From the NCBI GenBank assembly GCA_964016885.1, contig OZ024757.1, positions 24,552,001 to 24,616,000 of the forward strand: a DNA stretch of 64,000 nucleotides, given 5' to 3'. Position numbers and translations under genes: made by a program. Source of the DNA: Eledone cirrhosa. Its lineage: Eukaryota. This document shows positions 166-54,811 of this stretch, one piece after another (within the stretch, counting starts at the first letter, position 1; every line of letters begins with the position of its first letter). The notes beneath the pieces are model-generated. The model did no database searches. It saw nothing but the letters and a program-made list of their open reading frames with translations, and was not told the DNA's origin.

Positions 166-208
<43 letters not shown>

Positions 209-244
209 AAAGATGAAATAAAAGATGGTTATAAGAGTTCCATA

Positions 245-314
245 TATTTTATTATACGTATTTCGAATACAAAATGCTCCTGGGACAAAAATTGTGTTCT
301 CTTCAGATAAAATA
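245..314 (-). ncRNA. Type I minimal hammerhead ribozyme motif (mirror copy in the palindrome)
   Basis: Reverse complement of 421-490 with a single difference in loop II. Confidence 0.72.
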
Positions 315-420
315 AGGCACAATGATATGAGGCATAATAGCACTTGTTTATAGGAAAGTGCTAAGTCTACTTAGCACTTTCCTATAAACAAGTGCTATTA
401 TGCCTCATATCATTGTGCCT

Positions 421-490
421 TATTTTATCTGAAGAGAACACAATTTTTGTCCCAGGAGGATTTTGTATTCGAAATACGTATAATAAAATA
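421..490 (+). ncRNA. Type I minimal hammerhead ribozyme motif
   Basis: Stem I TATTTTAT (421-428) pairs with ATAAAATA (483-490). Core CTGAAGA at 429-435, stem II GAACACAA/TTGTATTC, GAAA at 471-474, palindromic stem III ATACGTAT. Predicted cleavage at AUA^ after 482. Confidence 0.75.
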
Positions 491-847
491 TATGGAACTC
501 TTATAACCATCTTTTATTTCATCTTTATTGTATATACTCCAGTTCTACCAACTGTCAAATGTTACTTATCTGATATATGCATAGTTTTATTGTTCTACAA
601 TATTACTCACCTTCTATATTATATATATATATATATAATGAGGGCCGGCTAAAACATTCATAGGCTGATTACAAAGGAGTGATGTTCATGCTGTGAAATC
701 TTGCATGCATTAATATTAATTTCAACTCTTCTTATTAATAACAGCAGTGTTTCTTTCCAGGGACTATGTTGAAAAATAAACCTCATTTGCTCATTCCATG
801 AGAGTATCTTGATCAGCCTATGAACATTTCATTCATATATATATATA

Positions 848-2116
848 CAGGGTGGGGCATAAGTTCGGAAGCAAATTTTTGAAATTTGACTTGTAAAAGT
901 GTTGCAAGTATATCATTAATCTTCTTTTATTTTCAATGTTAAAACATTAGTCTATGTAAACATATTGGACTTTGTTTGAATTTCTTAAAGAAATTGAATA
1001 TATCACCCAATAGAGAAATGATACTCAAACTTCAGTGCACAGGAAGATCAGATTCGGATATTGCAAAGTTACTTTCGGTGGCTAGATCTACTGTTTGGAA
1101 AGCTGTGAAGCATTTTAAAGAGCAAGTTTTGTTGGATAGATCCAGAAGTAGAAAACCTCAAACTAAACAGACTCCAACCATCATCAAAGTCTTTCGAGAA
1201 AGGATAAGAAGCAATCTGAAAAGTTCCATGAGAAAAATGGCAAAAGAGGTCCAAGTAAGGCCTAGGACAATGTGAAGGATCATCAATGATGATTTGGGAG
1301 TGTCTTCCTTCACTCTTCAGAACAGACAAACCTTTTTTTGTAAAGACAAAACAAAAAAAGGCTAGAGAGAAGCAATAATTTGCTTAAAGAAATGAAACGT
1401 GACATGAAAGAGGAAATTGTCTGGTCAGATGAAAAGATTTTCATTGTTGAGCAGACACACAACTGAAGAGAATGACAAGTCATTGGGAAAAACCCATCAA
1501 CAATCAGTGTTGACCAAATATCTGTATTCCATACAATGAAACCAGCTTCTGTTATGGTCTGGGTGGCTGTTTCATTGTCTTGGAAGTCTCCTCTCATTTT
1601 TGTGGAAGAAAGGACAAAAATCAGCTCCCAATCTTACATAGTTGCTTCTGCAACTAATCATTTTGGCAATGATTATCTGTGAACCTCCCAACAGGATGGA
1701 GTTACCTCCCATACAGCAAATGTCACACAAGCTTGGTGCAAAGACCATCTTTCGAGGTTCTAATCAAAAGAAATATGGCCTCCTTGTTCGCCTGATTTGA
1801 ACCCTAAGGACTTTTCAGTATGGTTTATCCTAGAAGATAAAGCCTGTTTAAAAGTCCACAAGACAGTCGATGATTTAAAGGCATCTTTACTGAGCGCTTG
1901 GAGAGAAATTCCCCAACAAATGTTGCATGCTTCGGTGAAAAATGTTCAACTGAGGTTAGAGGCTGTTATTGCTGCACGAGGGTGTCATTTTGAATAAATA
2001 TACATTATATTCTAAAGATATCTATGTATAATTACATATATGTTGCTGGTCAATAAAGTTAATAGTTTTGTTATTAAAAGCATTTTTATTTGTTTCCAAA
2101 CTTATGTCCCACCCTG
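848..2116 (+). mobile_element. Full-length dead Tc1/mariner DNA transposon, DD37D (maT) family
   Basis: About 28-bp TIRs (cagggtggggcataagttcggaagcaaa / tttgtttccaaacttatgtcccaccctg) flanked by TA. Transposase remnants include an HTH, WSDEKIF, QQDG and WPPCSPDLNPKDF, with 37 positions between the 2nd and 3rd D. Stops and frameshifts are present. Confidence 0.9.
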
Positions 2117-2199
2117 TATATATAATGTTTGATGATTTAGTGTTAAAGAATAAAAACTAATGATAAAAATATATTTTTTTTAAATGAAGCCCCCAAAAG

Positions 2200-2867
2200 G
2201 AAGCCTGTGCAGTGTACACTACAGGTGAATGAAGTTCCACTGAAGCAGGTAGAGAAGTTCAAGTACCTCAGGGCCGTGTTCACGAGTGATGGAAGGCAGT
2301 AGACTGAATTAAGTGCAAGAATTGTAAAAGCTGGTGCAGTAATGTGCCAGCTTCAGCATTCAGAAGAAGCGAGGTAGGCATAAAAGCCAAACTAGCTGAC
2401 TTCAATTCGGTTTTCGTGCCAATCTTTACCTATGGTCATGAATCTTGGGTAATGACCAAAAGAATACGATCGTGAATACAAGTGGCAGAAATGGGGTTCC
2501 TCCGAAGGATCTTTGAAGTAACGTTACTCGATAAAGTGTGTAGCTCAGAGATCAGAAAGTCACTCCAGGTAGAGCCGCTACTTCTCCAAATTAAGAGATC
2601 ACAGCTCTGATACTATAGACATGTAGTTAGAAAGTCTCAGGAAGGAATCGCTGGACAGATTTTACAGGTGAAACCAACAGGTAGGAGACCCGGGGGTAGA
2701 CCCTAAGCAAAATAGCTGGATACATCCATGAGCTTGGCTGGTCTCATTTGGGGATCCAACTGGATCAGTTGGAAATGGCTGCTTCTGACAGGACCTGCTG
2801 GAAGGAGTGTTTGAGGACTCTGCCCCAATGACCCTCTCAGGAATAAGTGGGTGAAGAAAAGAAGAAA
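2200..2867 (+). mobile_element. RTE-clade LINE 3' fragment
   Basis: Degenerate coding remnants (QVEKFKYL, LTYGHESWVMT, GRRPGGRP) followed by a gaa-type tail. Confidence 0.7.
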
Positions 2868-3286
2868 AAGCCCCCAAGAGTGTGTGGCTCTAAGCTTGAT
2901 AGCTCAGTCCAACACTGCATAACAATATGCCATGTGTGTTTGTATATTTACATATATATATCTCCCTCTGCAACTCTTTAAAATGTACACAAACATACAT
3001 ACACAATATCACAGTCACATTGCTGCAATAAGTAGTTCCCTTTCGATTCACAATATCAATTTTTCCATGTTGGCATGGGTTGGACGAGACTTTTTGAGGC
3101 AATGTTTTGCAGCCAGATGCCCTTCTGGACACCAACCTCTTCAATGCTTCTTACAACTTGCATGGACACACACACACACACACATATATATATATGTATG
3201 TAAAAGGTAAATAGAAATAACAACACAATCGGTACAGTATATGGAAGGAATATATTAGGTTAATGCTTGAAATAGCAAGAAGAGGG

Positions 3287-3322
3287 TCTTAACGTTTCGG
3301 ACGTTAGTCCTTCATCAGAAGA
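3287..3322 (-). ncRNA. Penelope-type minimal hammerhead ribozyme motif
   Basis: Minus strand reads TCTT-CTGATGA-A-GGAC taac GTCC-GAAACGTT-AAGA: 4-bp stem I, 4-bp stem II and palindromic AACGTT in place of stem III. Confidence 0.55.
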
Positions 3323-4539
3323 AAGAATGAGAAATTAGAAAGAATGAAGTGACAGTCAGGGCAATTATATATATATATATATATAATACCATATATACTC
3401 GAATATAAGCCGCTGCCTCCTCCCTTGTTTTATGTCTGAGAAATGGTCAAAAATCTAAACCCCATTTATAAACTAAGGCAGCTAATCAACACATTGTTTA
3501 GATGGTGTATATAAGCTGACCCCATTATTTTACCATCAATGTTTTTGTCACATATTGCTCAACTTATATGGTAAATATATATATATATATATATGTATAT
3601 ATAAAAACACACAGTCCACGCTGTAATATGGCCGTGTAGGTAACACGGTAAAAACCTCCCAGTACACACTGTAAACGTGGTTGGTGTTGGGAAGGGCACC
3701 CAGCCGTAGAAAACCCGCCAGACGTGTAGGTGTCACGACAATAAAACACACAGTCCACGCTGTAATGTGGCCGTGTAGGTAACACGGTAAAAACCTCCCA
3801 GTCCACACTGTAAACGTGGTTGGTGTTAGGAAGGGCATCCAGCCGTAGAAAACCCGCCAGACAGTCCTGAGCAAGACAACCAATCTTGCCTCAAGTGGGA
3901 CAATTCCCGTCCAGACCCATGCTAGCGTGGAAAATGAACGTTAAACGATGATGATGATGATGATTGATGATGATATACAATACATAAACAGAGAAAGCCT
4001 TAAGCGATACTCCGACCAACTCCATCTCACTCAACAAACATTAGGATATACCTAAGTATTATCCCAATTTAGTGTTTGGGGTGCTAACTAATCAGTATTT
4101 CGTGGATAGCTGGTTGTATTATTTTATATGAGACATTATTAAATAAATATCTCTTTCCTTCCAGACGGCCATTTTGTTATAAGATTTCTACAATTTGGGA
4201 TAAATAATTTCCAGGTTATGTAGAAACTTGTATATAATCCAGTTTTATACAAAAGCAGGTTCTTATAAACTCATCAGTGGATGCCCAAATAATATCGATA
4301 TAAGAATTATATCGACATTAATAGAATGGTGATGGTCTCCCTCAGCGCTAAGAAGAGACTGGTAGATTAGAAAATCCAGCAGTCCTCCCAAAGATAAAAT
4401 ACACGCTGTCCCCAAAAGGGTAAAGGGAGGTCATCTTAAAATAAAACAATATACACGCTGGTCATTTAAACCTGTTAGGTATTAACCACGTGTATAAGAA
4501 CTCAACTGGATATTAAAAGAATAAATATATATATATATA

Positions 4540-4974
4540 GAAGTGGTTACACAACAGTTAGTTCACCATACCGAGAACAATTGTTTCACCTTAGCGGATC
4601 CTCAGCTCGTAATGGACATGGTTATATGGAACAGGAAGGACAACTGAACAAACGTGCATGCGCAGAAACGATCACTTCACACAGGCAATACTAAATTGCG
4701 TGCGAGAGGTGTAAGGGAGATAACTGCGAAAGTCCGAAAGTTTCTAGTTGATAAGAAAATTAGGATGTTGTTGTAATTCAATCCGGAGCTTTGTAGTTAT
4801 GTCAGGTGTTTCCAGATGTGTGGACAACGTGTGAAGAATTCATTTCTCGTGTTTAGGAAATCACTCGTGCATAATCTCTTTAGAATATTTATTCGTTCAT
4901 CAATACATAGTCCACACGACGGATTGCCCCTTGCGAATATATACCACTACGGGTATTACCTTCCAGTGTTCTAC

Positions 4975-4976
<2 letters not shown>
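4540..4976 (-). mobile_element. 5'-truncated Penelope-like element: GIY-YIG endonuclease C-terminus plus 3' region with hammerhead
   Basis: Minus strand translates ...SCGLCIDERINILKRLCTSDFLNTRNEFFTRCPHIWKHLT* (stop at 4797-4799). This fits the CxLC..E..I..LNxRxE..CxH terminus of PLE endonucleases. A hammerhead follows about 180 nt downstream. Confidence 0.75.
4566..4615 (-). ncRNA. Type I minimal hammerhead ribozyme motif in the PLE 3' region
   Basis: Minus strand reads ccattaCGAG-CTGAGGA-tCCgctaaGGt-GAAA-CAATTG-TT^-CTCGgtatgg, with palindromic stem III ACAATTGT. Stem II is weak. Confidence 0.6.
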
Positions 4977-5021
<45 letters not shown>

Positions 5022-5777
5022 TATAAGTGAAAGGCAAAGCGTAAACGAACTGTGAGAGAAATTAGGCATAAGAGGAATTAGATGCAGTGCGCAGGATAGG
5101 AGATTACATTGGTATGGACACGTGATGCGTATGAAGGATGACAGCTGTATAAAAACGTGCAGAGCGCTCAAAGTTGATGGAAGCCATGGAGTGAGCAGGC
5201 CTAGGAAGACTTGGGATGAGGTAATAAAAACTGACTTTACACAATTACACTTTGGTAAGACAATGACACAGGACCGTTATATCTGACGCTACACAGTATT
5301 ACTGAAGACCCTCCTTCCCCTCTGCATGAGCTGAGGCATACATGCAGTATGCAACACCTTCCATACCATCACACCTCCCTTGCTGTAATCATCCCACCCC
5401 TATACCTACCTCCCAATTCCCCAGCAGGCATTTTCCCCACCCAAGCCCCCAGCCCACATCATAAAGTGGCACCCCCTGGAGCCACAACAAAAAGCCCCCA
5501 GTTCACACTGTAAAGTGGTTCTGTTGGTGACATGACAAAAGATGCCCAGCCCATGCTGTAAAATGGTCATGTAGGTGTCACGACAAAAAGCACCCAGCAC
5601 ACACTGTAAATGTAGTTGGCATTAGGAAGAGAATCCAGCCATAGAAACCAAGCCAAAATCAGTTCTGTATGAGCAAAACAATCCGTCGATCTGGATCTCT
5701 CAGAACAGGACAGTCCGTCATACCCATGCTAGCATGGAAAATGGATGTTAGATGATGGTGATATATGTATATATATA

Positions 5778-6160
5778 TATCATCAACATCATTTTACGTC
5801 CGCTTTTCCCTGCTAGCAAAGGTGGGACGGGAACTGATTCTGGCTTGATTTCTACAGCTGGATGCCTTTCCTAACACCAACCTCATTTACAGTGAGTGCT
5901 GGGTGCTATTTTGCCGTGGTACCTCCACGACCACTTTGCAGTGTGGGCTGGGTGTTTTTTTTACCGTGGCACCTCCACGACCACTTTGCAGTGGAATGAT
6001 AGGGACCCCAGTCCAATCATCTCATTTCTACAGCTGAGTAAACTGGAGCAATGTGAAATAAAGTGTCTTGCTCAAGGAAACAACACATCACCCGGTCTGA
6101 GAATTGAACTCACAACCTTTCAATTGCAAGGCCTATAACCACTAAGCCATGTGCCTCCAT
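5778..6160 (-). mobile_element. tRNA-derived CORE-like SINE with RTE-LINE-type tail
   Basis: tRNA-like head (tggcttagtggtt...gagttcaattc), CORE-like ccttgagcaagacacttta...cagtttactcagctgtagaaatg and tail gggaaaagcggacgtaaaatgatg. Many near-identical copies in the window. Confidence 0.75.
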
Positions 6161-7016
6161 TTGCGGTTGATAAAAAAAATTATAGTCAAGTACTGGGGTT
6201 GGTTTTCTCTCTCACTCTCTACATATTCTTCTTTGGAAGAAATCTGCTGTAGTCATACCTGGAGTGGAATGGGCTCGGCCAGGTTTTTAAAAAATGCCCT
6301 AAAAACGCCACATGTCAATACAGCACCTCTACAACTTCTAACTAGTAGTTACAGGACAAAAAAGAAAAAGAACTGCACGTGGTTAGTCAGTTGACTTGCT
6401 AAAGTTAGCAACCAAATCTCCCTCAACAGTCTTAAAAAAAGGGTTAAATAACCAAGTCCAGAAATTGAACCCATAACATTATATTGTAAGTTCAACACGC
6501 TTACCACTAGGCCATGTGTCTTCACACAACACACAACCTAGTCCAGGAATTGAATCCACAACATTATGGTCTTAAGTCCAACACCCTTACCACTGGGCAG
6601 CATGCCTCAACACAGTTGACCCAGGGTTAAACAACAAGGAAGTACACCCTTAGATAATGTAGTCCCAGATACACAATTATAGATGTGCTGGAACAGCCAT
6701 CTAAAAGCTCATCAAGCCAATGCTTATCCTGGTTTCCATGACATTAAGTGGTTGAAAGTACAAGACTCCCTCCTGGAGAGGACACCAGTCTACTGCAGGG
6801 TTAAAACCCCAGCTATTGCTGGTACTCATTTTCAGCTAAGTATACTGGAACAACATCAAATGAAATGTTTTGCTCAAGAACACAACACACAACTCAATCC
6901 AAGAACTGAACTCACGATATTACAATTGTAAGTCCAACACACTTACCACTAAGCCACATGCCTCCACACAGTTAGCCCAGAGTTAAACAAGAACCACAGA
7001 AGATTGAACCCCTTAC

Positions 7017-7221
7017 CTTGGAATCTGAAAGTAACTTTAACAATCCCCAAGATCTCAACTTTATGTTCGTAGTCATAGCTACCATCCAGCTTCTTTCGCT
7101 TACGTCGTTTAAATCTGAACAACAAGTTATTGGTGTTGCTGCTGTCCCCATAAGAACTTTTACAATAGGGGTCGGTTGGTCTCCAGCGAAGTTCCAGTCT
7201 CTGGTTAGAATTGACATATCT
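7017..7221 (-). CDS. GTF3C5: General transcription factor 3C polypeptide 5 (TFIIIC63/tau95), coding exon 2; gene continues left of the window
   Basis: RYVNSNQRLELRWRPTDPYC...NLLFRFKRRK...EILGIVKVTFRFQG matches the Tau95 N-terminal domain (LELxFRPxDPYC...EILGI). AG acceptor at 7223-7222 and GTAAG donor at 7016. Phase 0 joins exon 1. Confidence 0.9.
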
Positions 7222-7534
7222 CTGCAAAATAATATATTGATCTTTCAATTAATATATCTCAACAAAATAATCTTGATTTTTCAATATTTATATATATACC
7301 TGTTTGTTTATATCAATGTTGTTGTATTGTGGCAACATTCTTTTCGTCATCTTATTCTTGGTGTCACACTTCATTAACTTTTTGTATTCACTCTGGGTGA
7401 AAATGTATGTTCATTCCTAACTGGCCAGCCCTCATATATAACTTTATATATATCATCATCACTGTTTAACAGCTATTTTTTGACAATAGCATGTGAGATA
7501 AGCCAAATAAGATGGCCAGGTCTTGCTCAAACAG

Positions 7535-7578
<44 letters not shown>

Positions 7579-7629
7579 TTTCTGAATTTGTTTAGCAAGA
7601 TTCTTTATCTGAAAACGTGTGTTGAAACC

Positions 7630-7864
7630 GATATTGTTATACTTTGGGAGGGTCATGTTGCCAATAAGAATCCCCAGTCACTGAAGAGGTCACAGAATGT
7701 GTGACGAAAGAACTTTGACAATATATGAACAATCTGGTTGTGGAACCAACCAACCAACCGGAAATTTATAAATTCCTAAATTTATAAATTTAATTTATAA
7801 TAAATTGAAGTGAAAGCAACTGGTGCGTGTGTTTCTTATTGGCAACATGACCCTCCCAAAGTAT

Positions 7865-7871
<7 letters not shown>
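7630..7871 (+). mobile_element. Penelope-like terminal fragment with an inverted duplication of its 3' end
   Basis: About 41-bp inverted arms (atattgttatactttgggagggtcatgttgccaataagaa and its reverse complement) enclose a hammerhead. Related sequence at about 49675-49780. Confidence 0.6.
7677..7719 (+). ncRNA. Type I minimal hammerhead ribozyme motif
   Basis: GTCA-CTGAAGA-G-GTCACA gaatg TGTGAC-GAAA-GAAC-TT^-TGAC: perfect 4-bp stem I and 6-bp stem II. Confidence 0.68.
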
Positions 7872-7908
<37 letters not shown>

Positions 7909-8508
7909 ATTAGAATACTGGAGCGTGTTTAAGTCAAACACCCTCTTCGTATTATAGAAATGACAGTAAAAGGTATAGCTCAATGCAGTCACATTGCTGA
8001 CAAATGTTTCTCTGAACTGGTAGGTCTAGAGACCGCTACCTGCCTGTTTTTGCGTCAATCGATCACGACTACAGGGGGAGATAAAGCTGACAAGGCCTTG
8101 TTTCTGCATTTATTGATGCTTATCAAAGCCAAGTACTCCCCTGTCTGCTGAAGTTACGGATGTTATTTTCTTACAGAATTCTAGTAAATAATCAGGAACT
8201 GATTATACAGAGCGGTTGCCGGTCTAAGCAGAAATTATATATATAATATAAAACGAAAAATCAGTGATGCATCTGAACTCAATTTATTGTGTGTTACAAA
8301 TGATCCAGAATCAGACAGATCCACACAATGATCGCGTCTCAAGCTGTCCGCCGGCGAAACAATTGTAACACACAATAAATTGAGTTCAGATGCATCACTG
8401 ATTTTTAATTTTATATTATATCATACTCTGCCCTGTAAGAGCATAGAGTGCCCAACCGGCATACCGCCTATGGAAGCATCTTAGCTACCATCAGACACAC
8501 ACACATAC

Positions 8509-8552
<44 letters not shown>

Positions 8553-9393
8553 CAAGGAAGTGTGGTAAGGAACCAGGTGGGCCATAACGCACCAGAGTAC
8601 TCGATACTTTGGGTAGTAGAGTGGGTGATAGGAAAAGAGTCAAGACCCCGGCGGCAGAGCTCAGGCAGTTTCGACGGCTATTTCTGGTTCAGAAATAGCC
8701 GTCAAAACGGCTTGAGCTCTGCCGTCGGGGTCCTCACTATTTTCATATATATATATATATACCACGAAAAACATGAGCGGGGGTGGTGAGAGCATACCTC
8801 AGATCGCTGAACCTCACGGAGGAGATGACAAAGTTTCTGAAGAATGGAGAGATGCCATGCTTAACCAGACCCATCCCACCCTTGCAAGCAGGGAAACGCG
8901 GATGTAAAATGATGATAATGATGATGATGATGATGATATATATATAAAAGAAAAAAGCTATAAGATAATCCAGAGATCCAAAAAGATATCCAAGTGGAAG
9001 TTCAACTAGAGTCCTGGTAAAAATCCATTTCCAGGGTGAAAATCCGATGTTGGCTAGCAAGGGCTGGACAGGATATATAACATATCTCTGGCTCAGGGTT
9101 GCTGAAGCATGGAACAAACTACCTGCATCAGTTGTTAGCTGTCAGGACACTGCATCCTTGTAAACTTCCATGCTTCCCGAAATTTGCCAACAGTACACTC
9201 GATATTCCTCCTCCATACACAAGCACGCATGTATGTATATGTGTGTATATCACAACTCATACACTGTTCATTTTCCTAACATTTGTACATTATTCCATGT
9301 ACTATATATGCACCTTTGATGAGTTGTAGTGCACCTGAGCACTGTACATAATAATGTAATTATTATTATTTAATTATTATTATAATACAATAA

Positions 9394-10316: not shown

Positions 10317-10663
10317 TCATCATCATCATCATCATTTCATTTTACGTCTGCTTTTCCCTGCTTGCAAGGGTGGGACGGGAACTGATTCTGGCTTGATTTC
10401 TACAGCTGGATGCCCTTCCTAACACCAACCTCATTTACAGTGAGTGCTGGGTGCTTTTGTGCTGTGGCGCCTACACGTCCACTTTGCAGTGGAATGATAG
10501 GGACCCCAGTCCCTATCATCTCATTTCTACAGCTGAGTAAACTGGAGCAATGTGAAATAAAGTGTCTTCCTCAAGGAAACAACACATCACCCGGTCTGAG
10601 AATTGAACTCACAACCTTTCGATTGCAAGGCCAATGCTCTAACCACTAAGCCATGTGCCTCCA
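10317..10663 (-). mobile_element. CORE-like tRNA SINE, full length
   Basis: Nearly identical to the copies at 27969-28301, 36987-37331 and 53570-53909. (GAT)n tail. Confidence 0.75.
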
Positions 10664-10742
10664 TAGATATATATGTATAAATACAGAGCCTGCACCATCG
10701 TATATAAATATATACACATATCTAATATGTAGGCATTAATCA

Positions 10743-10931
10743 TGGTGAATTGGCAGTATCGGTAGAGGGTTGGACGCCATGCTTTGATGCATAGAGTTAC
10801 GGCCCTTGCCATTCTGAGTTCAAATCCCGCTTAGGTTAACTTTGCCTTTCATCCTTACGGGGTCGATAAAATAAAGTACCAGTAATGCACTGGGATAATT
10901 GCTGGCCTTGTGCCAAAAGTAGAAACAATTA
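10743..10931 (+). mobile_element. Meta-like tRNA SINE
   Basis: Same family as 9394-9582. Confidence 0.72.
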
Positions 10932-12364
10932 ATCATGTAAACAAATACAAATTTCGCTGTAAATTTGAAAAAATGATAAACACTTTAATTAATTTTTGGA
11001 CCTAACCGGACCTTCATCAGAAGACATGGATATCATCCAATCAACCACAAAGAAACATGTATTTGATGGGTTTGTTTACCCATTTGCTCGTAGTTTGCAT
11101 GTAATTAGTGCCCATGTTGATAATTAATTAAGAGAAGTGTGCTAGCAGCTGAAGTATATGATAAAGTTATATCTGTATAAATACAGAGTGTGTAAACCGA
11201 GACTGCACCAACATGTATAATATATATATACGAACGGCAGAGCATAAACGAATTGAGAGAGAGAGACTAAGCATTACAGGAATCAAATGCTAAGTGCAGG
11301 AGAGGAGGTTGCGCTGGTATGGACATGCGATGCGTATGAAGGATGACAGCTGCATAAAAAGATGCAGAACACTAAAGGTCGATGGAAGTCTTGGAGTGGG
11401 GAGACCCAAGAAGACCTGAGATGAGGTGATAAAAGCTGACCTTGCCCAATTGCACCTTTCAAAGGCGATGACAGAGGACCGAGACCTCTGGCGTTACGCA
11501 GTAATACAGAAGACCCGACTTCCCAAGGGTACAAGCCAAAGCTGAAGCATATAGACAGTATGCCCCCCACTCCTCTCCTACTGTAAAGTGGTCGTGTAGG
11601 TATCACAACAAAAAGTACCCAGCCCACACTGTAAAGTGGTCGTGTAGGTGTCACTACAAAAAGCACCCAGCCCACTCTGTAAAGTGGTCGTGTAGGTGTC
11701 ACAACAAATAGCACCCAACCCACAGGATGATTTCTCACTGTAGTTTTAGTCCTGTAGAATCTCTTCTATATTAAAACTTTTATACTCTGCTATGTATTGA
11801 GTACCTTACTTACTGTGGTTACCTCCGATTCAACCCGGAATAACTTACCTCTTATATATATATATATGTATATAGACGTCGGTATAAACAAAAGAAAAGG
11901 GTAATCAACACGTGTGGAAATTGACAGTGTTTATATTAACAATTTGACCTATTTCTGCCTTACCAGCAGTTTCAAGACGTAAGAATGTCTGTAAAATAAT
12001 GGTTTCTGATTTAGACACAAGGCCAAAAATTGGGAAAGGGGTCCAGTCGATGAAATCGACCCCAGTACGTTACTTTTACTTTATTTTATCAACCCTCTGA
12101 TAAATGACAAAGCAAACCTCGGCGGGATTTGAACACAGACGTAGAAAGTCGTAAATATATGCCTCAAAACATGTCCGACGCTCTAATAATTGTTTCTTAT
12201 ATATATATATAGGCACAAGGCCAGTAACTGGTACTTTATTTTATCGACTCCGTGAGGATGAAAGGCAAAGTCAACCTCGGCGTGCGTCGTTTATGCAGAA
12301 ATAAGTTAAACTGTTAATATAAACATTGTGTATGTGTGTGTGTATATATAATATCATCACCGAC

Positions 12365-16576: not shown

Positions 16577-16818
16577 GATATATGTATGTGTGTGTGTATA
16601 TATATATGTGTGTGTGTTGTATATATATATGTATGTGTGTGTGTATATATATATATTTATATGTGTGTGTATATATATATATGTGTGTGTGTATATATAT
16701 ATATGTGTGTGTGTGTGCATATATATTTATGTTTGTGTACATATATATATTCTGTGTAATTCTGAAGTTTTACTGCATGTGTGTGTTTCTGTTAATCTAT
16801 TTTTTTGTTATACTTCAG

Positions 16819-16930
16819 GAAAGACCTGGAAGAACAGATCAGGAAGAGGGTTTCATCGGAAGAGAGAGCTTTCCATATTGTTGTCAAGCTGGCTGAAGAA
16901 ACAGTTTCATTTGACAGACTTAAAGACATG
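16819..16930 (+). CDS. RPAP2: RPAP2 exon 2
   Basis: ttcag|G KDLEEQIRKRVSSEERAFHIVVKLAEETVSFDRLKDM|gtgggt. Confidence 0.85.
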
Positions 16931-17661
16931 GTGGGTTGTTGTTGTTATTATTATTATTATTATTATTTGGTGGTGGATTGGCAGTATCGGTAGAGGGTCG
17001 AACAATTTCCTCGTTTTTTCTAATATATACACTCTGCCTGTACATAGAGTGCATGTTTTGGTACAACCACCAGTAATTCACTGAATCACCTACACTATAT
17101 ATATATATATAAAATTGAAAGAGAAGGCTAAACAATGCAAAATGGACTGTGAGATGAGGTAACGAAAAGTAAGCTACCTGTTTTGTTTGTTGTTATTCTT
17201 TTTTCTGTTCAATATTTCGGGACCTAAAAGTCCCTTCTTCAGGGTTTAAGGAACTTTCCAATTTCCTCTCTTTGAACAGATAAATGAATAACAACAACAA
17301 GAAACAAAACAAAGATTACCAGGTAACTTACTTTTCGTTACCTCATCTTACAGTCCATTTTGCATTGTTTAGCCTTCTATCTCTTACAACATTATATATT
17401 ATACACAATACTTCAAGCAAACTACAACATTTTATTATATATATATGTGTGTGTATTTGGTAATGAAGCCATAAAAATAAGGATCTGTACAGCCTCGGCT
17501 GGTCCATTACTCACTCATTGAGACAAGATTTCAACGTGAGAACGGGCAAAGCAATATCGATCTGCTCTTCAGACTGGCGATGTGACAAAATATACATACA
17601 GATAGAAATATTTCGAAAATATCACAAGCAACCTTTCTATTATGATGTTATTGTTTTTAAG

Positions 17662-17760
17662 GCACACTTCCTCATGCCTACCCACTACCAAGACATTTGT
17701 GAAGAACGAGTCATTACCAAGCTTTGTGGATATCCAATTTGCACAAATAACATACCAAAT
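17662..17760 (+). CDS. RPAP2: RPAP2 exon 3 (zinc finger, CGYPIC)
   Basis: AHFLMPTHYQDICEERVITKLCGYPICTNNIPN|gtaagt contains the Rtr1/RPAP2 signature YxDxxxERxxxxxCGYPxC. Confidence 0.95.
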
Positions 17761-20204
17761 GTAAGTGAATGTATCTCTTTTTCATTGAATATTTGTTGTT
17801 CAAAGATGTTGCAGCTGTGACCATCCCCTTATCTGTATATCTAGCCAGCTACTCTAGTGTTGGTGCCATAATGAAATACACCCAATACGCTCTGTAAAGT
17901 GGTAGATTTGATGCCGTGATGATACACTCCTAGTACACTTAGTAAAGTTGTATTGCTGGTGGTGCCATGATAAAATACACCCAGTACACTGTAATGGGAT
18001 AATGCACTCAGAACACTGTAAAATGGTAGTCCTGATGTCACAATAAATTGCACCCAGTATACTCTGTAATGATGTTGGTGTTACGAGCTAACCTGGGGTT
18101 AAACAACAACAACTCATACTCAGTAAGTAAAGAGCCCTTAACTAATGATGGAGTCATAAGGTCGCCATTTTTACATGTGGTGTCTCAGGCAGTTTGAACT
18201 TGGTGGAGCTCATTCCACTCCAGGTCTGAACACAATTGATATCTTCCAAAGAAAGAAAAAAAAGAGAGGACGAATCACTCCCTGTACTGGACTAGTTCTT
18301 TATTTATTGACCACAAATTAACCTTGGTGGGATTTGAACTAGTGAGTACAGTGAGCCAGAACAAATTCCAAGCCACTTTTTATCCAACACTCGACTGCCA
18401 ATTTGCCACAGATATATAGGCAGTGAATTGGTAGAGTCATTAGAATGTTGGATAGAATGCTTTAAAGTATTTCAGGTTCTCTGTGTTTGAATCCCACTGA
18501 GATCAACTTTGCCTTTCAACCATTCTAAATCAATAAAAAACAGTACCAGTCAAGTACTGGGGTCAATTCTTCCTCTGTATCTCTTTCTCACTTCCTTTCT
18601 CTCACTGAAAGAAATCTGTTGTATTCAGACCTACCCTGCTGAGGTCATCTTAGCCTTTCATCCATTTGAGGTCAATAAAAGAAGTACCAATCTAGTGCTG
18701 AGGTTGATTTTTCCTCTACATCTCTTACTCACTTCCTTTCTCTCACTCTTTATCCTTCTCGGGAAGAAATCTGCTGTGTTCAGACCTAGAGAGAAGAAGG
18801 GCTCCGTCAGGTTTGAAAATGCCCTAGAAACGCTGTATGGCAATATGGCGCCCCTACGACTCTCTCAGGAGTTATGGGACTATACCATACCTATCACTTC
18901 ACATCACACAGATATAAACAAACAAAGGCATAATATAGGTGAAAAAGGAATGCTGTGATCGTCTCACTTGATCCATTCCGCCTTCACTGATTTCACATAA
19001 TCAACATAAATAGAAATATTTGATGCCATATACACCGAACAACCTCCAGCCAATGGCTAAAATGTTCATAGGCTGACCAAGATATTCTCATGGAATGACC
19101 AAATGAGGTTCATTTTTCAACATAATCCCTGGAAAGAAACAATGCTGTTATTAATAAGAAGAGGGAAATTAATACATACGAGATTTCAAAGCTCTAGCAT
19201 CAATCCTTTAGCTTTGAAGACTTTGCACTTTGTAGATCTCCAATGATATTGATTTATTATATACTAGCTGAAGTACCCGGCTTCGCCCGGGAGAACAGAG
19301 AAAACGACTGTATTGGATGTGTTGTCTGGTATGAGGTGAGACTGTGTGAGAAAGACATAAAAAAAACAATCATAAAACTTCCTTATTAGGCTGGGGGAGT
19401 AAACTGCTGATTAAATGGTAGCATTCATCATCATCACCCTTTTATGTCCCTTCTTCCACGCTAGCATGGGTTAGATGGGTTGTCCTGTTGTGGGCAGTGT
19501 CCGGTCGGCTGACCTTGTCTTGCTCATACGGGAACTGATTCTGGCCTGATTTCTATAGCTGGATGCCCTTCCTAACACCAACCTCATTTACAGTAAGTGC
19601 TGGGTGCTTTTTTTTTCCATGGCACCTATACATCCACTTTACAGTGAGTGCTGGGTGCTTTTTTGCCATGGTACCTCCACGACCACTTTGCAGTGGATTG
19701 ATAGGAACCCCAGTCCTATCATCTTATTTCTACAGCTGAGTAAACTGGAGCAATGTGAAATAAGGTGTCTTGCTCAAGGAAACAACACATCACCCGGTCC
19801 GGGAATTGAACTCACACTTGGCCTTGGATTTTAAATGTTGTGAAATAACCATAGTCAGTATGATCTTTTTCAGCTCCAAAGGACGTCATCTGAAACGTAG
19901 CAATGCACCGCATAACATTGCTTCTGAAGTGTTGCTTCGTTAGTATGGACTGTAAGTAGTATATGGAAAAAAGCTGGAAGGTAGATTAATTTCAAATAGT
20001 ATCAATTTTTCTTTGTTCTGTAAAATCAAAGATTATAAAACAACTTTATAAAAGCTAACACAATATTGTTAAACCTTCCTATAGATCAAAGACTTTTGTG
20101 GGACATCTCTCTCTCTCTCTGAATATTTAACACTTTAATTTGTGTTAATTTAAAAGTTGGTTTTGAATAAGGACAATGGGATTGATGAGTTAATATCTGT
20201 ATAC

Positions 20205-20430: not shown

Positions 20431-20604
20431 TGTATATCTCTCTCTTTAGATGTGTGTGTATATAGTTTGTGTGATTCAACCAACCAATTTTATATATATA
20501 GATTGGAAATTGGACTAAATCTCTCCAATAATATTGATTTATGGTTAGTAATAAATATATTGGAAATCAAGCTAAACTTGCCTTAAAATATTCATTTATT
20601 GTAG

Positions 20605-36986: not shown

Positions 36987-37331
36987 TCATCATTCATCAT
37001 CATTTCATTTTACGTCCGCTTTTCCCTGCTTGCAAGGGTGGGACGGGAACAGATTCTGGCTTGATTTCTACAGCTGGATGCCCTTCCTAACACCAACCAC
37101 ATTTACAGTAAGTGCTGGGTGCTTTTTTGCCGTGGCACCTCCACGACCACTTTACAGTGGAATGATAGGGACCCCAGTCGCTATCATCTCATTTTACAGC
37201 TGAGGAAACTGGAGCAATGTGAAATAAAGTGTCTTGCTCAAGGAAACAACACATCATCCGGTCTGAGAATTGAACTCACAATCTTTCGATTGCAAGACCA
37301 ATGCTCTAACCACTAAGCCATGTGCCTCCAT
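36987..37331 (-). mobile_element. CORE-like tRNA SINE
   Basis: Same family as 10317-10663. Confidence 0.72.
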
Positions 37332-38945: not shown

Positions 38946-40687
38946 GCCCTAATAATGGAAGATATATTCTTTTAATGTTGCAATATTAAAGAAAATGTAA
39001 AGGAAGGGGTGAACAGCGGAGCCAACACCAGAGCAAAAGACAGCAACGTCGCGAGTACTGGGCAACCTCTCTAATGATTTTTGAGACAAGCCAGCACACT
39101 AGCAGCGTTGCCTCGGGTAATGGCGAGGCTGAGGTGCTGGAACAGCCAAGCACCCTCACGAGATTCGCCAGTTACCTCTATTAGGTGAGCCACCGTTGTT
39201 CACCCCTTCCATTACATTTTCTTTAATATTGTAACATTACAAGAATATATCTTTCATAATAATAATAGTTTCTACTTTCGGCACATGGCTAGCAATTATT
39301 CCAGTATATTACTGGTACTTTATTTTATCGACAATAATAATCAACTTTAAATTCTAGTTCATTAAATTGCTCCAAAATCAATTGAAATACGTCGGTTGGT
39401 GTATTACATGAGAAATACAATACAGCGTGGATTACGGCAGCTAAACAAAACTACCGTTTAAATAGTTGCTTTTGACTTTATGAAGGGAAAACTAAAAATA
39501 TGTTTCAATAAAAAATGTTCAACATAATATAAAGCTCTACTTTACCTTCATAAAAATGAAAAAAAAAATCGTTTTTTAACACTTTTTCCTGAGGTCGAAA
39601 AACACGAAACCTTAAGGCAGTCATTTTGTTTTTCTTCGATAGATTTACACTATGAATATGCAAAGTGTGTATGTGTGTATATATATATATAATGTATAAT
39701 AAACAATACAGTATAATTACCTCATTACCAGAGGTTTCCGGAATAAGACGAATACAAGAAACGTCCGCATTCGTTCGCCAGACAAGGGAATTTAAAAGTG
39801 AAATATTTGTCAAATCTCCTCAAGAAAGGCTAAAAGTTTAACGGGCAAAAAAATAATAAATAAAAGTAATGGTAATCTTTCGTTTTAGGTACGTAAATAA
39901 AAAAAAATCCAGAAAAACCAAAATTTATTTCAAAAGAAGCGAAATCTCACAAAGGATATTAACCCTAACCCATGTTATTTAAACTGACGGAAACCGAAAC
40001 TTAGTGAAATTTAAACATATCGACAAAGTTTTATTTTACGTACCGAAAACGAAAGATTGCCAAAGTAATAATACAAGAAATGTATAAAAAATAAAAATAA
40101 AGAAATATAGTAAGGGGATGTGTGTGTATATGCACATACATATGTACATGTGTGTGTATGTACAATTGCATGTGTATAGTGAAAAAATGTGTGCGTAAGT
40201 ACATACATGAGGGCAAACATATTAGTGTATGTGTGACCAAATACATATATATATATATATATATATATGTTGAAAATAGAAATTGTAAGAAAATGGAGTT
40301 AGCGTACATACAGACTATATATATATATATATTATAGAGTCAAGACAACGGCGGCTGAGCACTTGCCGTTACAATAGCTAGTTCCAGACTGATTGCCAAA
40401 GGCATTTGCGGTTAACTGACTGTATCGGAAGGACTGTTTGTCCAAATAAAGGGCATGCATTGTTTATATAATTGTAAAATCCCTTCAAAAAGTGTTCTTT
40501 TTTGTTTGTTGAGGGAGAGGTTGTGTGTATAGACATCTGGCTGAGTGAGTGTTTATATGCATGTGTACGTCTAAATGCGTGTCCAAGTGTATCTGCCTGG
40601 TCAGCTTGAGATAGAATAATCGTGGAGAGCGGGCAGAAAAATATCTATCGAGAAAATATATTACGGTGTGTGTATGTCTGCTCCCAC

Positions 40688-40908: not shown

Positions 40909-41791
40909 GCTCCCATGCATGGTTATCGCGACCTTCAGACAAACGGTCTATAGAATTGGCGTCAGTCGCCCTATCAAAGAATAGTGCAAGTTGACCGAAT
41001 GGAAGACATATTTGTCAACGAAGTGACAACTAACTTCTTAGTTATCTGGAAAAAAAACAGGAACAGCAGCCAATACAACAGCGCACACACGTATTTGATG
41101 AGACAACGATATATGTTAATTGACAAGGTTGACTAACTTGAGGAATTAGGATATTATTTAAATAAGGTAATCCTGGAAAAAAACGAAAGTTTGCACAGAA
41201 ATATTCTAAAAGAAAACGTTGTAGATAACAATTGCATCGATGAAATCAATAATAAAATAAATAAATGTGTTTAGTATAATGTTTCTACTTTTGGCACAAG
41301 GCCAGCAATTACTCCAGTGAATTACTGGTGCTTTATTTTATCGACCCTGTAAGGATAAAAGGCAAAGTTAACCTCGGCAGGATTTAAACGCAGAACGCAA
41401 AGGGTCATAACTCTATGCTGCAAAGCATGGTGTCTGACGCTCTACCGATACTGCCAAACTAATGAAAAGATTACGGGTATAAACGTTTAGCCATGCCAGA
41501 GTGGAAACATGGACGTTAAAAGGTGATGATAATGATATATGAATGTATACATTTATTTAAGTATACATATATTTATGTATATATGTATACGTATGTCATT
41601 GTCGCTGTTTAACATCCATTTTTGCACGCTAGCATGGGTTAGACAAGTTGTGAGGCAAGTGTAGTGAGATGACCCTGTCTTGCTCATGCAGAATTATTTC
41701 TGGCTTGCTATAGCTGGGTGCCCTTCCAAACTCTGACCACACTTACAGTATGGACTGGGTGCTTTTTGTCATGTCACTAACACAACCACTC

Positions 41792-43520
41792 TATGATGTA
41801 GTGTGCAGGAGAGAAGACTGTGCTGGTGTGGACATGTGATGTAGTGTGCAGGAGAGAAGACTGTGCTGGTGTGGACATGTGATGTAGTGTGCAGGAGAGA
41901 AGACTGTGCTGGTATGGACATATGATGTAGTGTGAAGGAGAGAAGACTGTGCTGGTATAGACATGTGATGTAGTGTGCAGGAGAGAAGACTGTGCTGGTA
42001 TGGATATGTGATGTAGTGCGAAGGAGAGAAGACTGTGCTGGTATAGACATGTGATGCAGTGTACAGGAGAGAAGACTGTGCTGGTATAGACATGTGATGT
42101 AGTGTGCAGGAGAGAAGACTGTGCTGGTATAGACATGTGATGTAGTGTGCAGGAGAGAAGACTGTGCTGGTATGGACATGTGATGTAGTGTGCAGGAGAG
42201 AAGACTGTGCTGGTATGGACATGTGATGTAGTGTGCAGGAGAGAAGACTGTGCTGGTATGGACATGTGATGTAGTGTGCAGGAGAGAAGACTGTGCTGGT
42301 ATAGACATGTGATGTAGTGTGCAGGAGAGAAGACTGTGCTGGTATGGACATGTGATGTAGTGTGCAGGAGAGAAGACTGTGCTGGTATGGACATGTGATG
42401 TAGTGTGCAGGAGAGAAGACTGTGCTGGTATGGACATGTGATGTAGTGTGCAGGAGAGAAGACTGTGCTGGTATGGACATGTGATGTAGTGTGCAGGAGA
42501 GAAGACTGTGCTGGTATGGACATGTGATGTAGTGTGAAGGAGAGAAGACTGTGCTGGTATAGACATGTGATGTAGTGTGCAGGAGAGAAGACTGTGCTGG
42601 TATGGACATGTGATGTAGTGTGCAGGAGAGAAGACTGTGCTGGTATGGACATGTGATGTAGTGTGCAGGAGAGAAGACTGTGCTGGTATGGACATGTGAT
42701 GTAGTGTGCAGGAGAGAAGACTGTGCTGGTATGGACATGTGATGTAGTGTGAAGGAGAGAAGACTGTGCTGGTATAGACATGTGATGTAGTGTGCAGGAG
42801 AGAAGACTGTGCTGGTATAGACATGTGATGTAGTGTACAGGAGAGAAGACTGTGCTGGTGTGGACATGTGATGTAGTGTGCAGGAGAGAAGACTGTGCTG
42901 GTGTGGACATGTGATGTAGTGTGCAGGAGAGAAGACTGTGCTGGTATGGACATGTGATGTAGTGTGCAGGCGAGAAGACTGTGCTGGTATGGACATGTGA
43001 TGTAGTGTGCAGGAGAGAAGACTGTGCTGGTATGGACATGTGATGTAGTGTGCAGGCGAGAAGACTGTGCTGGTGTGGACATATGATGTAGTGTGAAGGA
43101 GAGAAGACTGTGCTGGTGTGGACATATGATGTAGTGTACAGGAGAGAAGACTGTGCTGGTGTGGACATGTGATGTAGTGTGCAGGAGAGAGAGAAGACTG
43201 TGCTGGTGTGGACATATGATGTAGTGTGCAGGCGAGAAGACTGTGCTGGTATAGACATATGATGTAGTGTGCAGGAGAGAAGACTGTGCTGGTATGGACA
43301 TGTGATGTAGTGTGCAGGAGAGAAGACTGTGCTGGTGTGGACATATGATGTAGTGTGAAGGAGAGAAGACTGTGCTGGTATAGACATATGATGTAGTGTA
43401 CAGGAGAGAAGACTGTGCTGGTGTGGACATGTGATGTAGTGTGCAGGCGAGAAGACTGTGCTGGTATGGACATATGATGTAGTGTGCAGGAGAGAAAACT
43501 ATGCTGGTGTGGACATATGA
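41792..43520 (+). repeat. 43-bp tandem array (about 40 units) derived from an RTE LINE C-terminal segment
   Basis: Unit atgtagtgtgcaggagagaagactgtgctggtatggacatgtg matches the LINE at about 59900-59945 (CSVRERRLRWYGHV). The array continues directly into a LINE 3' end and (GAT)n tail at 43520-43757. Confidence 0.93.
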
Positions 43521-51903: not shown

Positions 51904-53569
51904 TAGGCGGCGAATTGGCAGAGTCGTTAGAAGGTCAGATATTCGTTCCGGCTCTCAAATCCCACCGAAGTCAACTTTGCCTTTCATCCTTTCGATGTCG
52001 ATGGAAAAAGTACTGGGGTTGATTCTTCCTCTATATCTCTTTCGTATTTCCTCTCTCTTCTCTCTATCTTTCTCTGGAAGAAATCTGCTGTACTCAGACC
52101 TGGAGAGGAATGGATTCTGCCAGGCTTAAAATGCCCTAGAAACGCTGTGTTTCAATATGGCACCCCCACGATTCCATCAGGAGTTACGGGACCATACATA
52201 CATACATTGTGTATATATATATCCAAAAAGTCAGCTCAAAAGTGACACAGAGGAGACTGAGGTTGGCTGGACATGCTCACCGACATCCAGAGTTGACATT
52301 GCACTCAGTGCTCCTTTGGGAGCCCCTACATGGACACACTAGAAGAGGAAGACCAAGGTTAACATATGTTGATGCCCTAAGGACAGACACTGGTCTGTTG
52401 GAGATGCAGGATATGGCAGCGATAATGAGGGACAGAGACCGCTGGAGAGAACTCGTCCATGGATCTCGGGAATTTTACCCGCCTTAGATAGATAGATAGA
52501 TATATATACCCTATATATATATATATATAAAAACAAACCCTATATATATATATATATAGGGTTTAGGATGGTGGTTAGGAAAAAAGGAGTTTCTATCGTC
52601 AGCTGTAAATGTATCCCAAACCGATGTTTCGGTGCTGAATTACAGGACATTGGTGTAGTTCGGGTGCACCCGAGGCCTTTTATTAATCAAAAGGCCAGGT
52701 GGAAAAGGAGAGAGAAAGAGAGAGAAAAAAGGAGAGAGAAAGGAGGAAGAACAGGGGGGGGGGAGATGAGGAGAGAGGAAGAAGGGGGAAAATAGGAAAG
52801 GAATAGAAGAAAAAAAAAAGTGTACAGATCCCATCGTGGGAAGACACAGGTGAAAGAAGCATGCAAAAAAGTAACCGTGGAAAAATAGGGAAAGTAAGTT
52901 GTTGCCAACCTGGTGGTCAGCTACGACTCAGAGCTGCTTACCTGAGGCAGCTCATCGGGTTTTTGTAGCCTCAGTACTCCCACCCCCGTAAATTCTATAT
53001 AGCACTGGCCAAAAATGCAATACCAGCTGAAAATATAGCAGTTGTTTTAGACTAGTTTTTTTTTGTTTTGTTTTTAATATTTAATTTTTTAATATTATTT
53101 TCTATTTATTTTTTTTAAATTTTGTAATTTCAATTTATCAACTTTTTAATTTTTTATAACTTCCCACTCTCAGATTCCTCTAGAATTGTTTTTTCGCCTG
53201 CTTTCTAGCTAGCCTAATTCATCCACACTCCTTAGAATTTGCTGTATAGAATTCACTTTCAACGCTTGACCGGCTCCACCCACTCCCTCATTGTTCTACA
53301 GGCAAGTTCAGCCAACCCCACCACCCACTCACCGCTATGAAAGATTTGATTGTGTTTACAAGAAATTTTGAGCAATCCTTTTGACAACTACAATCTTCAC
53401 AAATGCATGATTATTGCACGCCCATATATGGAATTACCTCTTGAAAAGTCCGGCTATTTATTACCACGCTAAAAATCTAATTTCATCCAGAAATAGCCAG
53501 CCATCGAAACGACTTGAGCTCTGCCGTCGGGGTCTTGAACATTTTCTTATATATATATATATATATATA

Positions 53570-53909
53570 TATCATTTCATCATCATCATTTCATTTTACG
53601 TCCGCTTTTGCAAGGGTGGGACGGGAACTGATTCTGGCTTGATTTCTACAGCTGGATGCCCTTCCTAACACTAACCTCATTTACAGTGAGTGCTGGGTGC
53701 TTTTTGCCGTGGCACCTCCACGACCACTTTGCAGTGGAATGATAGGGACCACAGTCCCTATCATCTCATTTCTACAGCTGAGTAAACTGGAGCAATGTGA
53801 AATAAAGTGTCTTGCTCAAGGAAACAACACATCACCCGGTCTGAGAATTGAACTCACAACCTTTCGATTGCAAGTCCAATGCTCTAACCACTAAGCCATG
53901 TGCCTCCAT
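53570..53909 (-). mobile_element. CORE-like tRNA SINE
   Basis: Same family as 10317-10663. Confidence 0.72.
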
Positions 53910-53959
53910 ATATGTATATATATATATATATATACACACGCACACACAAGAGTGTTGTT

Positions 53960-54042
53960 TATCTTAGTTGTTACGTAGTAACTTCCTGGTGATAAACAAA
54001 TCCTCGCGATCCAAAGCACTACATGTCAGTAGTTTATTCCAG
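53960..54042 (+). promoter_or_regulatory. Candidate promoter / 5'UTR exon of the VWA3B-like gene with an RFX X-box-like palindrome
   Basis: GTTACGTAGTAAC at 53970-53982, adjacent ETS-like ACTTCCTG and a possible donor ccag|gtagat at 54042. A matching acceptor tttcag at 55629 lies upstream of the ATG. Confidence 0.35.
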
Positions 54043-54548
54043 GTAGATGATAACGAGTGACGGAGTATTCATTTATAAAATAATTGTTTCTACTTTTGGC
54101 ACAAGCCCAGCAATTATCCCAGTACATTACTGGTACTTTATTTTATCGACCCCGTAAGGATGAAAGGCAAAGTTGACCTCAGTGGGACTTAAACTCAGAC
54201 CATAAAGGGCCGTAACTCTTTGCTGCAAAGCATGGCATCCGACCCTCTACCGATACTGGCAATCCACCAAATGGTAGTTAAGATGGGATTAACTCACCAT
54301 AATTGTTTAATTGTGGTGATTTTAATCGGTGGATTGGCAGTATCGGTAGAGGGTCGGACATCATGCTTTGACGCATAGAGTTACGGCCCTTTCCATTCTG
54401 AGTTCAAATCCCGATGAGGTCAACTTTGCCTTTCATCCGCTAAGGTGAAACAATTGATCTCGGTATGGTGAACTAACTGTTGTGTAACCACTGCTATATA
54501 TATATATATATATATATATCATCATTTTACGTCCGCTCTTCCCTGCTT

Positions 54549-54811
54549 TAATTAACTCATTACCAGAGGTTTCCCGAATAAGACGAATACAAGAAACGTC
54601 CTCATTCGTTCGTCAGACAAGGCAATTTAAAACATGAAATATTTGAAAAATCTCCTCAAGAAAGGCAAAAGTTTAACGGGCATTAAACTTTTGCCTTTCT
54701 TGAGGAGATTTTTCAAATATTTCACTGTTTTAAATTGCCTTGTCTGACGAACGAATGAGGACGTTTCTTGTATTCGTCTTATTCGGCAAACCTCTGGTAA
54801 TGAGGTAATTA
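54549..54811. repeat. Fold-back inverted repeat (about 128-bp arms, 6-nt spacer) with degenerate hammerhead-like cores
   Basis: 54549-54676 is approximately the reverse complement of 54683-54811. A third copy lies at about 39690-39846. Confidence 0.85.

Follow-up and report, generated by a model that had tools for sequence, protein, structure and literature searches.

The 64,000-nt stretch analysed here, hereafter the window (Eledone cirrhosa, GenBank assembly GCA_964016885.1, contig OZ024757.1, positions 24,552,001 to 24,616,000), carries dispersed hammerhead ribozyme motifs that very probably sit in the 3' pseudo-long terminal repeat (pLTR) of at least seven Penelope-like element (PLE) families bearing open reading frames (ORFs). 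The window copies would be 5'-truncated ends of such elements, probably produced when target-primed reverse transcription inserted them into TA-rich DNA. What was seen directly is that the families are linked to ORFs, that copies are truncated and have inverted pieces upstream, that the tail is optional, and that (TA)n stands at the ends. This basic finding is known PLE biology, and both hammerhead-bearing Hydra PLEs in Octopus and the view of retrozymes as PLE derivatives are already in print; less ordinary are the density of the motifs, a series of altered cores in the family E lineage, and a motif in the tail.

We searched the window with a type-I descriptor (stem I of at least 4 bp, CUGANGA, stem II of at least 2 bp, GAAA, stem III, UH), which is short and was tuned after the sites had been seen. 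Six strict hammerheads were returned, with C3 at 429 (+), 306 (-), 3318 (-), 4605 (-), 7681 (+), and 54616 (-), compared to 0.027 on average and never more than 1 in 300 dinucleotide shuffles of 1-kb blocks, the control proposed in an earlier, sequence-only reading of this DNA. Stem III is exactly palindromic in four of the six, while 54616 (-) combines an intact core with a 3-bp stem III closed by a triloop. Stem I positions 5 to 7, which lie outside the descriptor, pair in 56 of 99 cases versus 43.3 +/- 4.1 in partner swaps, the clusters not being independent; the pairs were counted with a script because MAFFT, applied to 26 family representatives, did not align the 3' halves correctly. The Rfam search proposed alongside the shuffles had the opposite outcome, with cmscan of the window giving no hammerhead among 50 matches at E<=1 and missing all six strict motifs; its matches were to hairpins (miRNA), tRNA-like sequences, and, weakly, two cis-regulatory elements. 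Judged by their sequence and pairing, the window motifs are real hammerhead motifs.

Cores or halves of hammerheads are present at all of the coordinates cited by the sequence-only reading, and the ten sites fall in nine repeat families, in agreement with its proposal that several independent families keep one fold. Its list of decayed cores needs amendment. Single core changes or weak stems do account for A6G at 39715-39785, G12A at C3 11020, the decayed stem I of C3 32681, and the stem I of just 2 bp at C3 17242, which recurs in other copies of family G; the site at 8356-8367 is instead a 5'-truncated copy missing the 5' core strand. Within 54549-54811, the core at 54744 (+) is altered (G12C), but its inverted twin at 54616 (-) is intact. 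The copies in the window, by family, are as follows.

369-637 (+): family A (Hydra-type PLE) 3' end, pLTR with optional tail, ending in (TA)n; intact hammerhead C3 429, predicted cut after 482
199-373 (-): family A inverted 5'-truncated copy; hammerhead C3 306; 168-nt arms, 99% complementary
3186-3352 (-): family B (Neptune-type linker and endonuclease, EN) 3' end; minimal hammerhead C3 3318, stem III ACGU
4534-4938 (-): family C (Hydra-type) 3' end; hammerhead C3 4605, stem III ACAAUUGU
4942-4989 (+): family C inverted piece, distal tail
54435-54513 (+): family C extra 3' fragment beginning within stem II, absent from the sequence-only reading
7558-7670 (-): family D inverted piece, 3' end and tail; 7631-7670 aligned, left edge by eye
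7664-7870 (+): family D (reverse transcriptase, RT, and GIY-YIG; Neptune-like) 3' end; hammerhead C3 7681, non-palindromic stem III AGAACU
8241-8298 (-): family E inverted piece
8302-8508 (+): family E (Hydra-type) 3' end and tail, cut off inside a long stem II; 3' half of hammerhead only, family core CCGUCGA
10665-11231 (-): family F, ORF-less, circularly permuted unit of ~348 nt, ~1.1 units; hammerhead C3 11020, G12A; interrupted by an unrelated 188-nt repeat at 10744-10931
17105-17274 (-): family G (RT and GIY-YIG) 3' end; hammerhead C3 17242, 2-bp stem I, weakened here
17287-17437 (+): family G inverted piece
32558-32786 (+): family H, old; hammerhead C3 32681, stem I decayed; Hydra-type tail motif in family copies
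39684-40316 (-): family I (Hydra-type) 3' end in two pieces, 39684-39871 and 40069-40316; hammerhead A6G
54549-54682 (-): family I inverted copy; intact hammerhead C3 54616, predicted cut after 54561
54683-54920 (+): family I 3' end and tail; hammerhead C3 54744, G12C

The family C fragment at 54435-54513 (+) is joined to a repeat resembling a short interspersed element (SINE) through a short shared sequence. First-look candidate matches numbered 1551 for A, 2515 for B, 1557 for C, 383 for D, 1013 for E, 967 for F, 860 for G, 803 for H, and 1896 for I, figures that are rough indicators and not copy numbers (family D alone has 6,693 exact 34-nt matches in the genome). The best-scoring copies are 92-98% identical to the window copy in A to E and I (some D down to 86%) and 79-93% in F, G, and H, and most copies of all families span just a few hundred bases.

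No PLE protein is encoded within the window itself, and the connection to PLE ORFs comes from longer copies retrieved from the genome. RT and EN frames lie upstream in all six long copies of family A, and a family C copy (L254) retains an open RT-EN frame of 585 aa that stops 173 nt ahead of the hammerhead core. EN is contiguous with the hammerhead in family I (L256-L258), family E has RT and EN frames (L243), and in family B (L248) EN is followed by the 3' untranslated region (UTR) and then the hammerhead. Family D (L249) matches Pfam RVT_1 and GIY-YIG, and family G has EN and RVT_1 (L252 and L253). In all seven, the hammerhead is downstream of the ORF and sense to it, at a distance of ~0.2-1.6 kb. 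The seven families A, B, C, D, E, G, and I are thus identified, by their sequences, as EN+ PLEs. This bears out the Penelope relationship that had been suggested for the motifs, but not the idea that they mostly belong to short non-coding retroelements in their own right, as in seven of the nine families the copies derive from the 3' ends of elements that are ~2.5-4.5 kb long and bear ORFs.

Motifs place families A, C, E, and I in the Hydra clade. All four carry the CxCX5C linker, which is absent in B, D, and G, together with YRDD and a terminal CxxC/CxH, and their aligned endonucleases lack CCHH and have CxxC and CxH near the C-terminus (E: L242, L246). The DKG position reads DKT in A and E and DTT in one C copy, and the N-terminal RW-type motif reads RWI in A and GWR in one E copy (I not read at either). 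The RTs of the Hydra-type families are 33-57% identical to each other, with no match to D or G. Tail-less Hydra-type copies end in (TA)n (20 of 26 in A, for example), and most others run on into the tail. The endonucleases of B, D, and G are canonical and Neptune- or Nematis-like; a CX2-5CxxC linker precedes the canonical GIY-YIG in B and G and in one D locus (L250, not L249). We also note asparagine-rich inserts between the RT and EN of Hydra ORFs at four loci (L032, L035, L243, and L244), similar to those reported for a rotifer Penelope (PMC3846280). Further Hydra-type families (L244:5114-7700, L258:4106-6300, L324) have, by eye, 3' ends with seemingly odd cores (e.g., TTGAGAA or CTGATCC before GAAA).

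The architecture of the copies is that of PLE insertions. Of 163 family loci scored, 102 are single and 42 have an upstream inverted piece, and in a blind 400-kb sample of the genome 34 strict motifs include five head-to-head pairs, one tail-to-tail pair, and no tandem. The positions of the 5' ends vary widely, between -5 and more than 900 nt upstream. Among 60 copies of B and D, none begins at the cut site (nearest -5 and -6), in a set that was retrieved with queries beginning at that site and that includes the two window copies and some paired arms. We considered the cleaved 3' fragment as RT template and found it unsupported on this count, and because no copy starts at the cut site we infer that the copied RNA was uncut or rejoined. 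Core mutants likewise still allow PLE insertion in vitro (PMC11167929). Target-site duplications are unreadable within (TA)n. From their structure, we identify the window copies of the seven ORF-linked families as pLTR ends truncated on the 5' side, with an inverted piece in six cases: the fold-backs that the sequence-only reading attributed to PLE inverted duplication accompany the copies of six window families and represent a standard, already published PLE scar (PMC3846280, PMC4209133), not separate mini-elements. A young hammerhead family elsewhere in the genome (loci L426-L430), found by Rfam RF00163 and missed by our descriptor owing to a bulged stem I, also has fold-back copies and (TA)n ends.

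We hypothesize that the GIY-YIG nuclease of the element nicks (TA)n and that RT has two alternative start points past the hammerhead, on its downstream side, which would give copies with or without the tail. RT would then pass through the uncut ribozyme, usually stop early, and often add a head-to-head inverted second copy; family F, likely a non-autonomous unit of pLTR-like character, would be copied likewise, from multimeric or circular RNA. The ribozymes themselves probably process tandem master transcripts slowly, as dimers formed via the palindromic stem III, a model proposed previously (PMC4209133). The palindromic stems III form no hairpin, and computed self-duplex energies are -6.5, -6.4, and -1.7 kcal/mol. 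Dispersed copies are probably inert in host pre-mRNA, since a copy on its own has no partner and since the antisense arm of a head-to-head pair would be transcribed first and trap the ribozyme in a long duplex; host transcripts would probably be spared.

Several observations weigh against this account or parts of it. The monomer fold of family C is computed to be unfavourable (+3.0 versus -4.7 kcal/mol), stem III of family D is not palindromic, and family I could, by computation, fold as a monomer. The clades were assigned by motif alone, and the ORF-bearing copies are broken. Among the 163 scored loci, 16 were scored as inverted-downstream and 13 as direct; nine of the 16 came from the family D query, which contained the inverted piece of the window, and the others were not all resolved. 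No autonomous partner was found for family F, family H yielded no linked ORF by upstream walk or nearby ORF search, and outside the window, among subfamilies of the TATTTT type that are very abundant, several showed no link to an ORF of their own in the loci examined.

Family E departs from the canonical hammerhead. It might seem to have lost its core, which is wrong: the 5' strand sits 61 nt upstream, across a long stem II and beyond the 45-nt limit used first (raising that limit to 80 nt takes the blind sample from 34 to 37 motifs and adds none in the window). A CTGATGA...GAAA string in the 3' UTR of the family was also considered as a hammerhead and fits no hammerhead type. The core reads CCGUCGA (U4C, A6U) in 28 of 33 copies, a related group, E', has one extra base (CUGAAAGA or CUGAAGGA) in 24 of 26, and one copy of the lineage retains a canonical CUGAGGA core. 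Exact genome matches in the lineage number 731 (a CCGUCGA-bearing 20-nt sequence) and 1,539. An alignment of 20 of the 60 copies of the lineage shows pairing in 93% of stem cells and three pairs with changes on both sides, covariation that rests on about three lineages and few events; RNAalifold recovers stem II but not stem I. Family E thus appears to be a Hydra lineage that was amplified with a changed core while its stems covaried.

These data bring in a reading that is compatible with a PLE origin, in which the fold is selected not for cutting but as an RNA dimerisation or protein-binding scaffold, with cleavage slow or dispensable. U4C, A6C, and an insertion after A6 reduce hammerhead activity (PMC3088659), and yet copies of the E lineage are 92-98% identical to their queries and keep pairing stems; the in vitro insertion of core mutants and the lack of copies beginning at the cut site are also as this reading would predict. 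On the other hand, CUGANGA is kept in 33 of 33 clusters, though the descriptor requires it, the covariation in E is as limited as described above, a weak U4C viroid variant still works in vivo (PMC3088659), and E might be mobilised in trans. We consider selection for a scaffold a genuine possibility, if one that we would not favour at present. What hammerheads do for PLEs is recognised in the literature as an open question (PMC8557442, PMC7761336), one for which the sister cores (E, E', and canonical) form a natural test series.

The optional tail contains a shared motif. In ten families or subfamily groups, GAGTGCT occurs at 20-40 nt from the start of the tail, usually after ACTC (8420-8460 in the window), in 5 of 15 copies of A, 11 of 15 of C, 15 of 16 of E, 11 of 17 of E', and 4 of 13 of H, as well as in five groups outside the window; the fractions are lower bounds, as the anchors also caught non-tail sequence, and the chance expectation is 0.0035 per 70 nt. 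The motif is absent from the tails of B, D, G, and I and present in one of 38 tails of F. By eye, family I tails instead have GCTC...GAGC, possibly a compensatory form. Our guess is that ACTC...GAGTGCT is a candidate recognition hairpin for RT or EN; we found no description of it in the literature searched.

Family F bears on whether most motifs could be stand-alone retrozymes, i.e., small units without coding capacity whose RNA cuts itself, forms circles, and is propagated through rolling-circle reverse transcription. Its unit of ~348 nt (32% GC) has no ORF, and the downstream tail runs back into its own upstream sequence, so that copies are permuted. Among 53 distinct loci (11 duplicates dropped), 45 cross the unit junction and 33 exceed one unit, up to 1.6 units, with two of the three queries favouring long copies. 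A second ORF-less permuted hammerhead family occurs outside the window (unit ~420 nt, stem III ACUAGU; L190, L053, L186, L193), and the short length of most copies in all families would also suit retrozymes. Yet seven of the nine families continue into PLE ORFs, 5' ends are scattered and not fixed, and tandem dimers are found neither in the 53 F loci, where none of the top matches sampled reaches two units, nor among the 34 blind motifs. As a general explanation, stand-alone retrozymes are improbable, and for the seven families with ORF links they are largely refuted. Family F itself has an inverted 5' piece in 15 of 53 loci, (TA)n ends in 23 of 53, and 3' ends at two sites ~42 nt apart in 34 of 53; a strict hammerhead survives in 11 of 51 copies, and the loci show no ORF and no common non-unit upstream DNA. 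It is likely a retrozyme-like unit moved by PLE enzymes. Such mobilisation has been proposed for animal retrozymes (PMC7229834) and argued for recently (bioRxiv 10.64898/2026.07.22.740005), and family F adds insertion-scar evidence for it.

Eight of the ten insertion sites are in introns of two host genes, in line with the mostly intronic location suggested earlier. The genes of the window, mapped by tblastn and with their best protein matches in octopus, are as follows.

Exons 12535-12365 and 7230-7015 (-): GTF3C5 (Tau95), with the next exon 679 nt before the window
16817-33216 (+): RPAP2, divergent to GTF3C5
55728-61175 (+): gene for a vWA and DUF4537 protein

One GTF3C5 intron holds sites A, B, and C and another holds D, E, and F; G and H are in introns of RPAP2, while the two family I copies are outside the mapped coding spans. 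Three intact motifs (306, 3318, and 4605) are sense in a single GTF3C5 intron, which might suggest co-opted host regulators that cut GTF3C5 or RPAP2 pre-mRNA. We find this very unlikely, in that each motif belongs, with nothing to set it apart, to a large repeat family whose best-matching copies are 92-98% identical to it; the B and C palindromes differ, so neither has a dimer partner nearby; motif 306 is enclosed in a near-perfect 168-bp hairpin; and older copies have decayed, as in F.

The genome (3.0 Gb, 1,796 contigs) is densely populated with these motifs, as the sequence-only reading had supposed. The 34 strict motifs in the blind 400 kb compare with 0.25 in shuffled sequence and correspond to 85 per Mb, or 255,000 genome-wide by extrapolation (bootstrap 142,000-397,000). 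One half-motif has 93,708 exact genome matches versus 344 for the reversed control, and 93 of 108 such sites complete a hammerhead. Given these contrasts and that in the window, chance matches in AT-rich, repeat-rich DNA are refuted, despite the short and post hoc descriptor. The point estimate is probably high because the blind sample over-represents the half-motif pattern (127,000 predicted) and family D (22,000 predicted versus 6,693). We estimate 140,000-250,000 hammerhead motifs genome-wide, with ~87,000 from exact counts. The resulting octopod density of ~50-85 per Mb compares with ~4.5 per Mb in axolotl (126,247 hammerheads, PMC7229834; 28-Gb genome, bioRxiv 10.64898/2026.07.22.740005) and would be the densest hammerhead load that we found on record, descriptors differing between studies. 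Xenopus has ~9,000, again by a different descriptor (PMC4209133), and 235 were reported in giant squid (PMC6962438); no genome-wide count for any octopus was found in the literature searched. Because Rfam misses all six window motifs, standard annotation would greatly undercount cephalopod hammerheads. Head-to-head inserts, in their tens of thousands, would also give rise to long double-stranded RNA in introns, and the octopus is an animal known for heavy RNA editing.

One can join these strands into a single, more speculative account: the densest recorded load, including a Hydra lineage in thousands of copies whose core is crippled in two ways while the fold is kept, with the ACUC...GAGUGCU tail hairpin at RT start sites acting as the real cis signal for mobilising Hydra elements and the hammerhead as a dimerisation scaffold, not a cutter. 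We advance this tentatively and think it rather unlikely to hold in full.

Other repeats share the window. The SINE-like repeat of ~188 nt that interrupts family F at 10744-10931 is very abundant, with copies near 9396, 26868, 30445, 35590, 38488, 41280, 50408, 54074, and 62866; in public contigs its joints run from end to start and from end to inner positions, which suggests tandem or permuted copies. A second SINE family has tRNA-like matches at 53841-53898, 37263-37320, and 10596-10653 (-), one of which reaches the Rfam gathering score (34.8 bits). Broken Tc1/mariner-like transposase pieces with a helix-turn-helix match lie at 943-1994 (+), and minisatellites at 41665-43500 (43 nt), 22895-23520 (30), 29170-30200 (21), 33620-34100 (28), and 63000-63900 (8-10).

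Among known systems, the closest to families A, C, E, and I is the Hydra clade of PMC8557442, whose features include the linker and terminal CxxC/CxH and whose supplement lists Hydra-1_Obim of Octopus bimaculoides with a hammerhead. Both have CxCX5C and C-terminal CxxC and CxH, and DKT or DTT and an RW-type motif were read in some of the families here; both also insert into (TA)n, carry a type-I hammerhead on the 3' side, and leave 5'-truncated copies in inverted orientation. By eye, none of our 33 clusters matches the Hydra-1_Obim hammerhead motif, and there are many more families and copies here, with stem II of up to 61 nt and a 3' UTR of up to ~1.6 kb. Canonical hammerheads are described there as universal in Hydra, whereas the E lineage has non-canonical cores. 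The minimal hammerheads of metazoan PLEs (PMC4209133) are similarly dispersed singles from truncated PLEs or opposite-strand pairs 100-700 bp apart, with an extra base after A9, palindromic stem III, a 2-bp stem I in one family, and many families per genome; counts of ~2,000-9,000 per genome were given there, with other descriptors, versus our estimate of >100,000. Family F resembles animal non-LTR retrozymes in its size (~350 nt, for a class spanning 150-450 nt), its low GC content (32% in F), its lack of coding capacity, and its one type-I hammerhead per permuted unit, and differs in lacking tandem dimers in 53 loci and in its mostly decayed hammerhead; its PLE-specific scars (two 3' ends, inverted 5' piece) are a kind of evidence not used in the available part of bioRxiv 10.64898/2026.07.22.740005. 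Finally, the window copies share with canonical PLE insertions (PMC3846280, PMC11167929) the pLTR, an optional tail probably due to two RT starts, a head-to-head inverted copy, an AT-rich target, and a probably uncleaved RNA template, but where canonical tails are 30-40 nt, those here are often 70-110 nt and have in common GAGTGCT, a motif not met in the available parts of those two papers.

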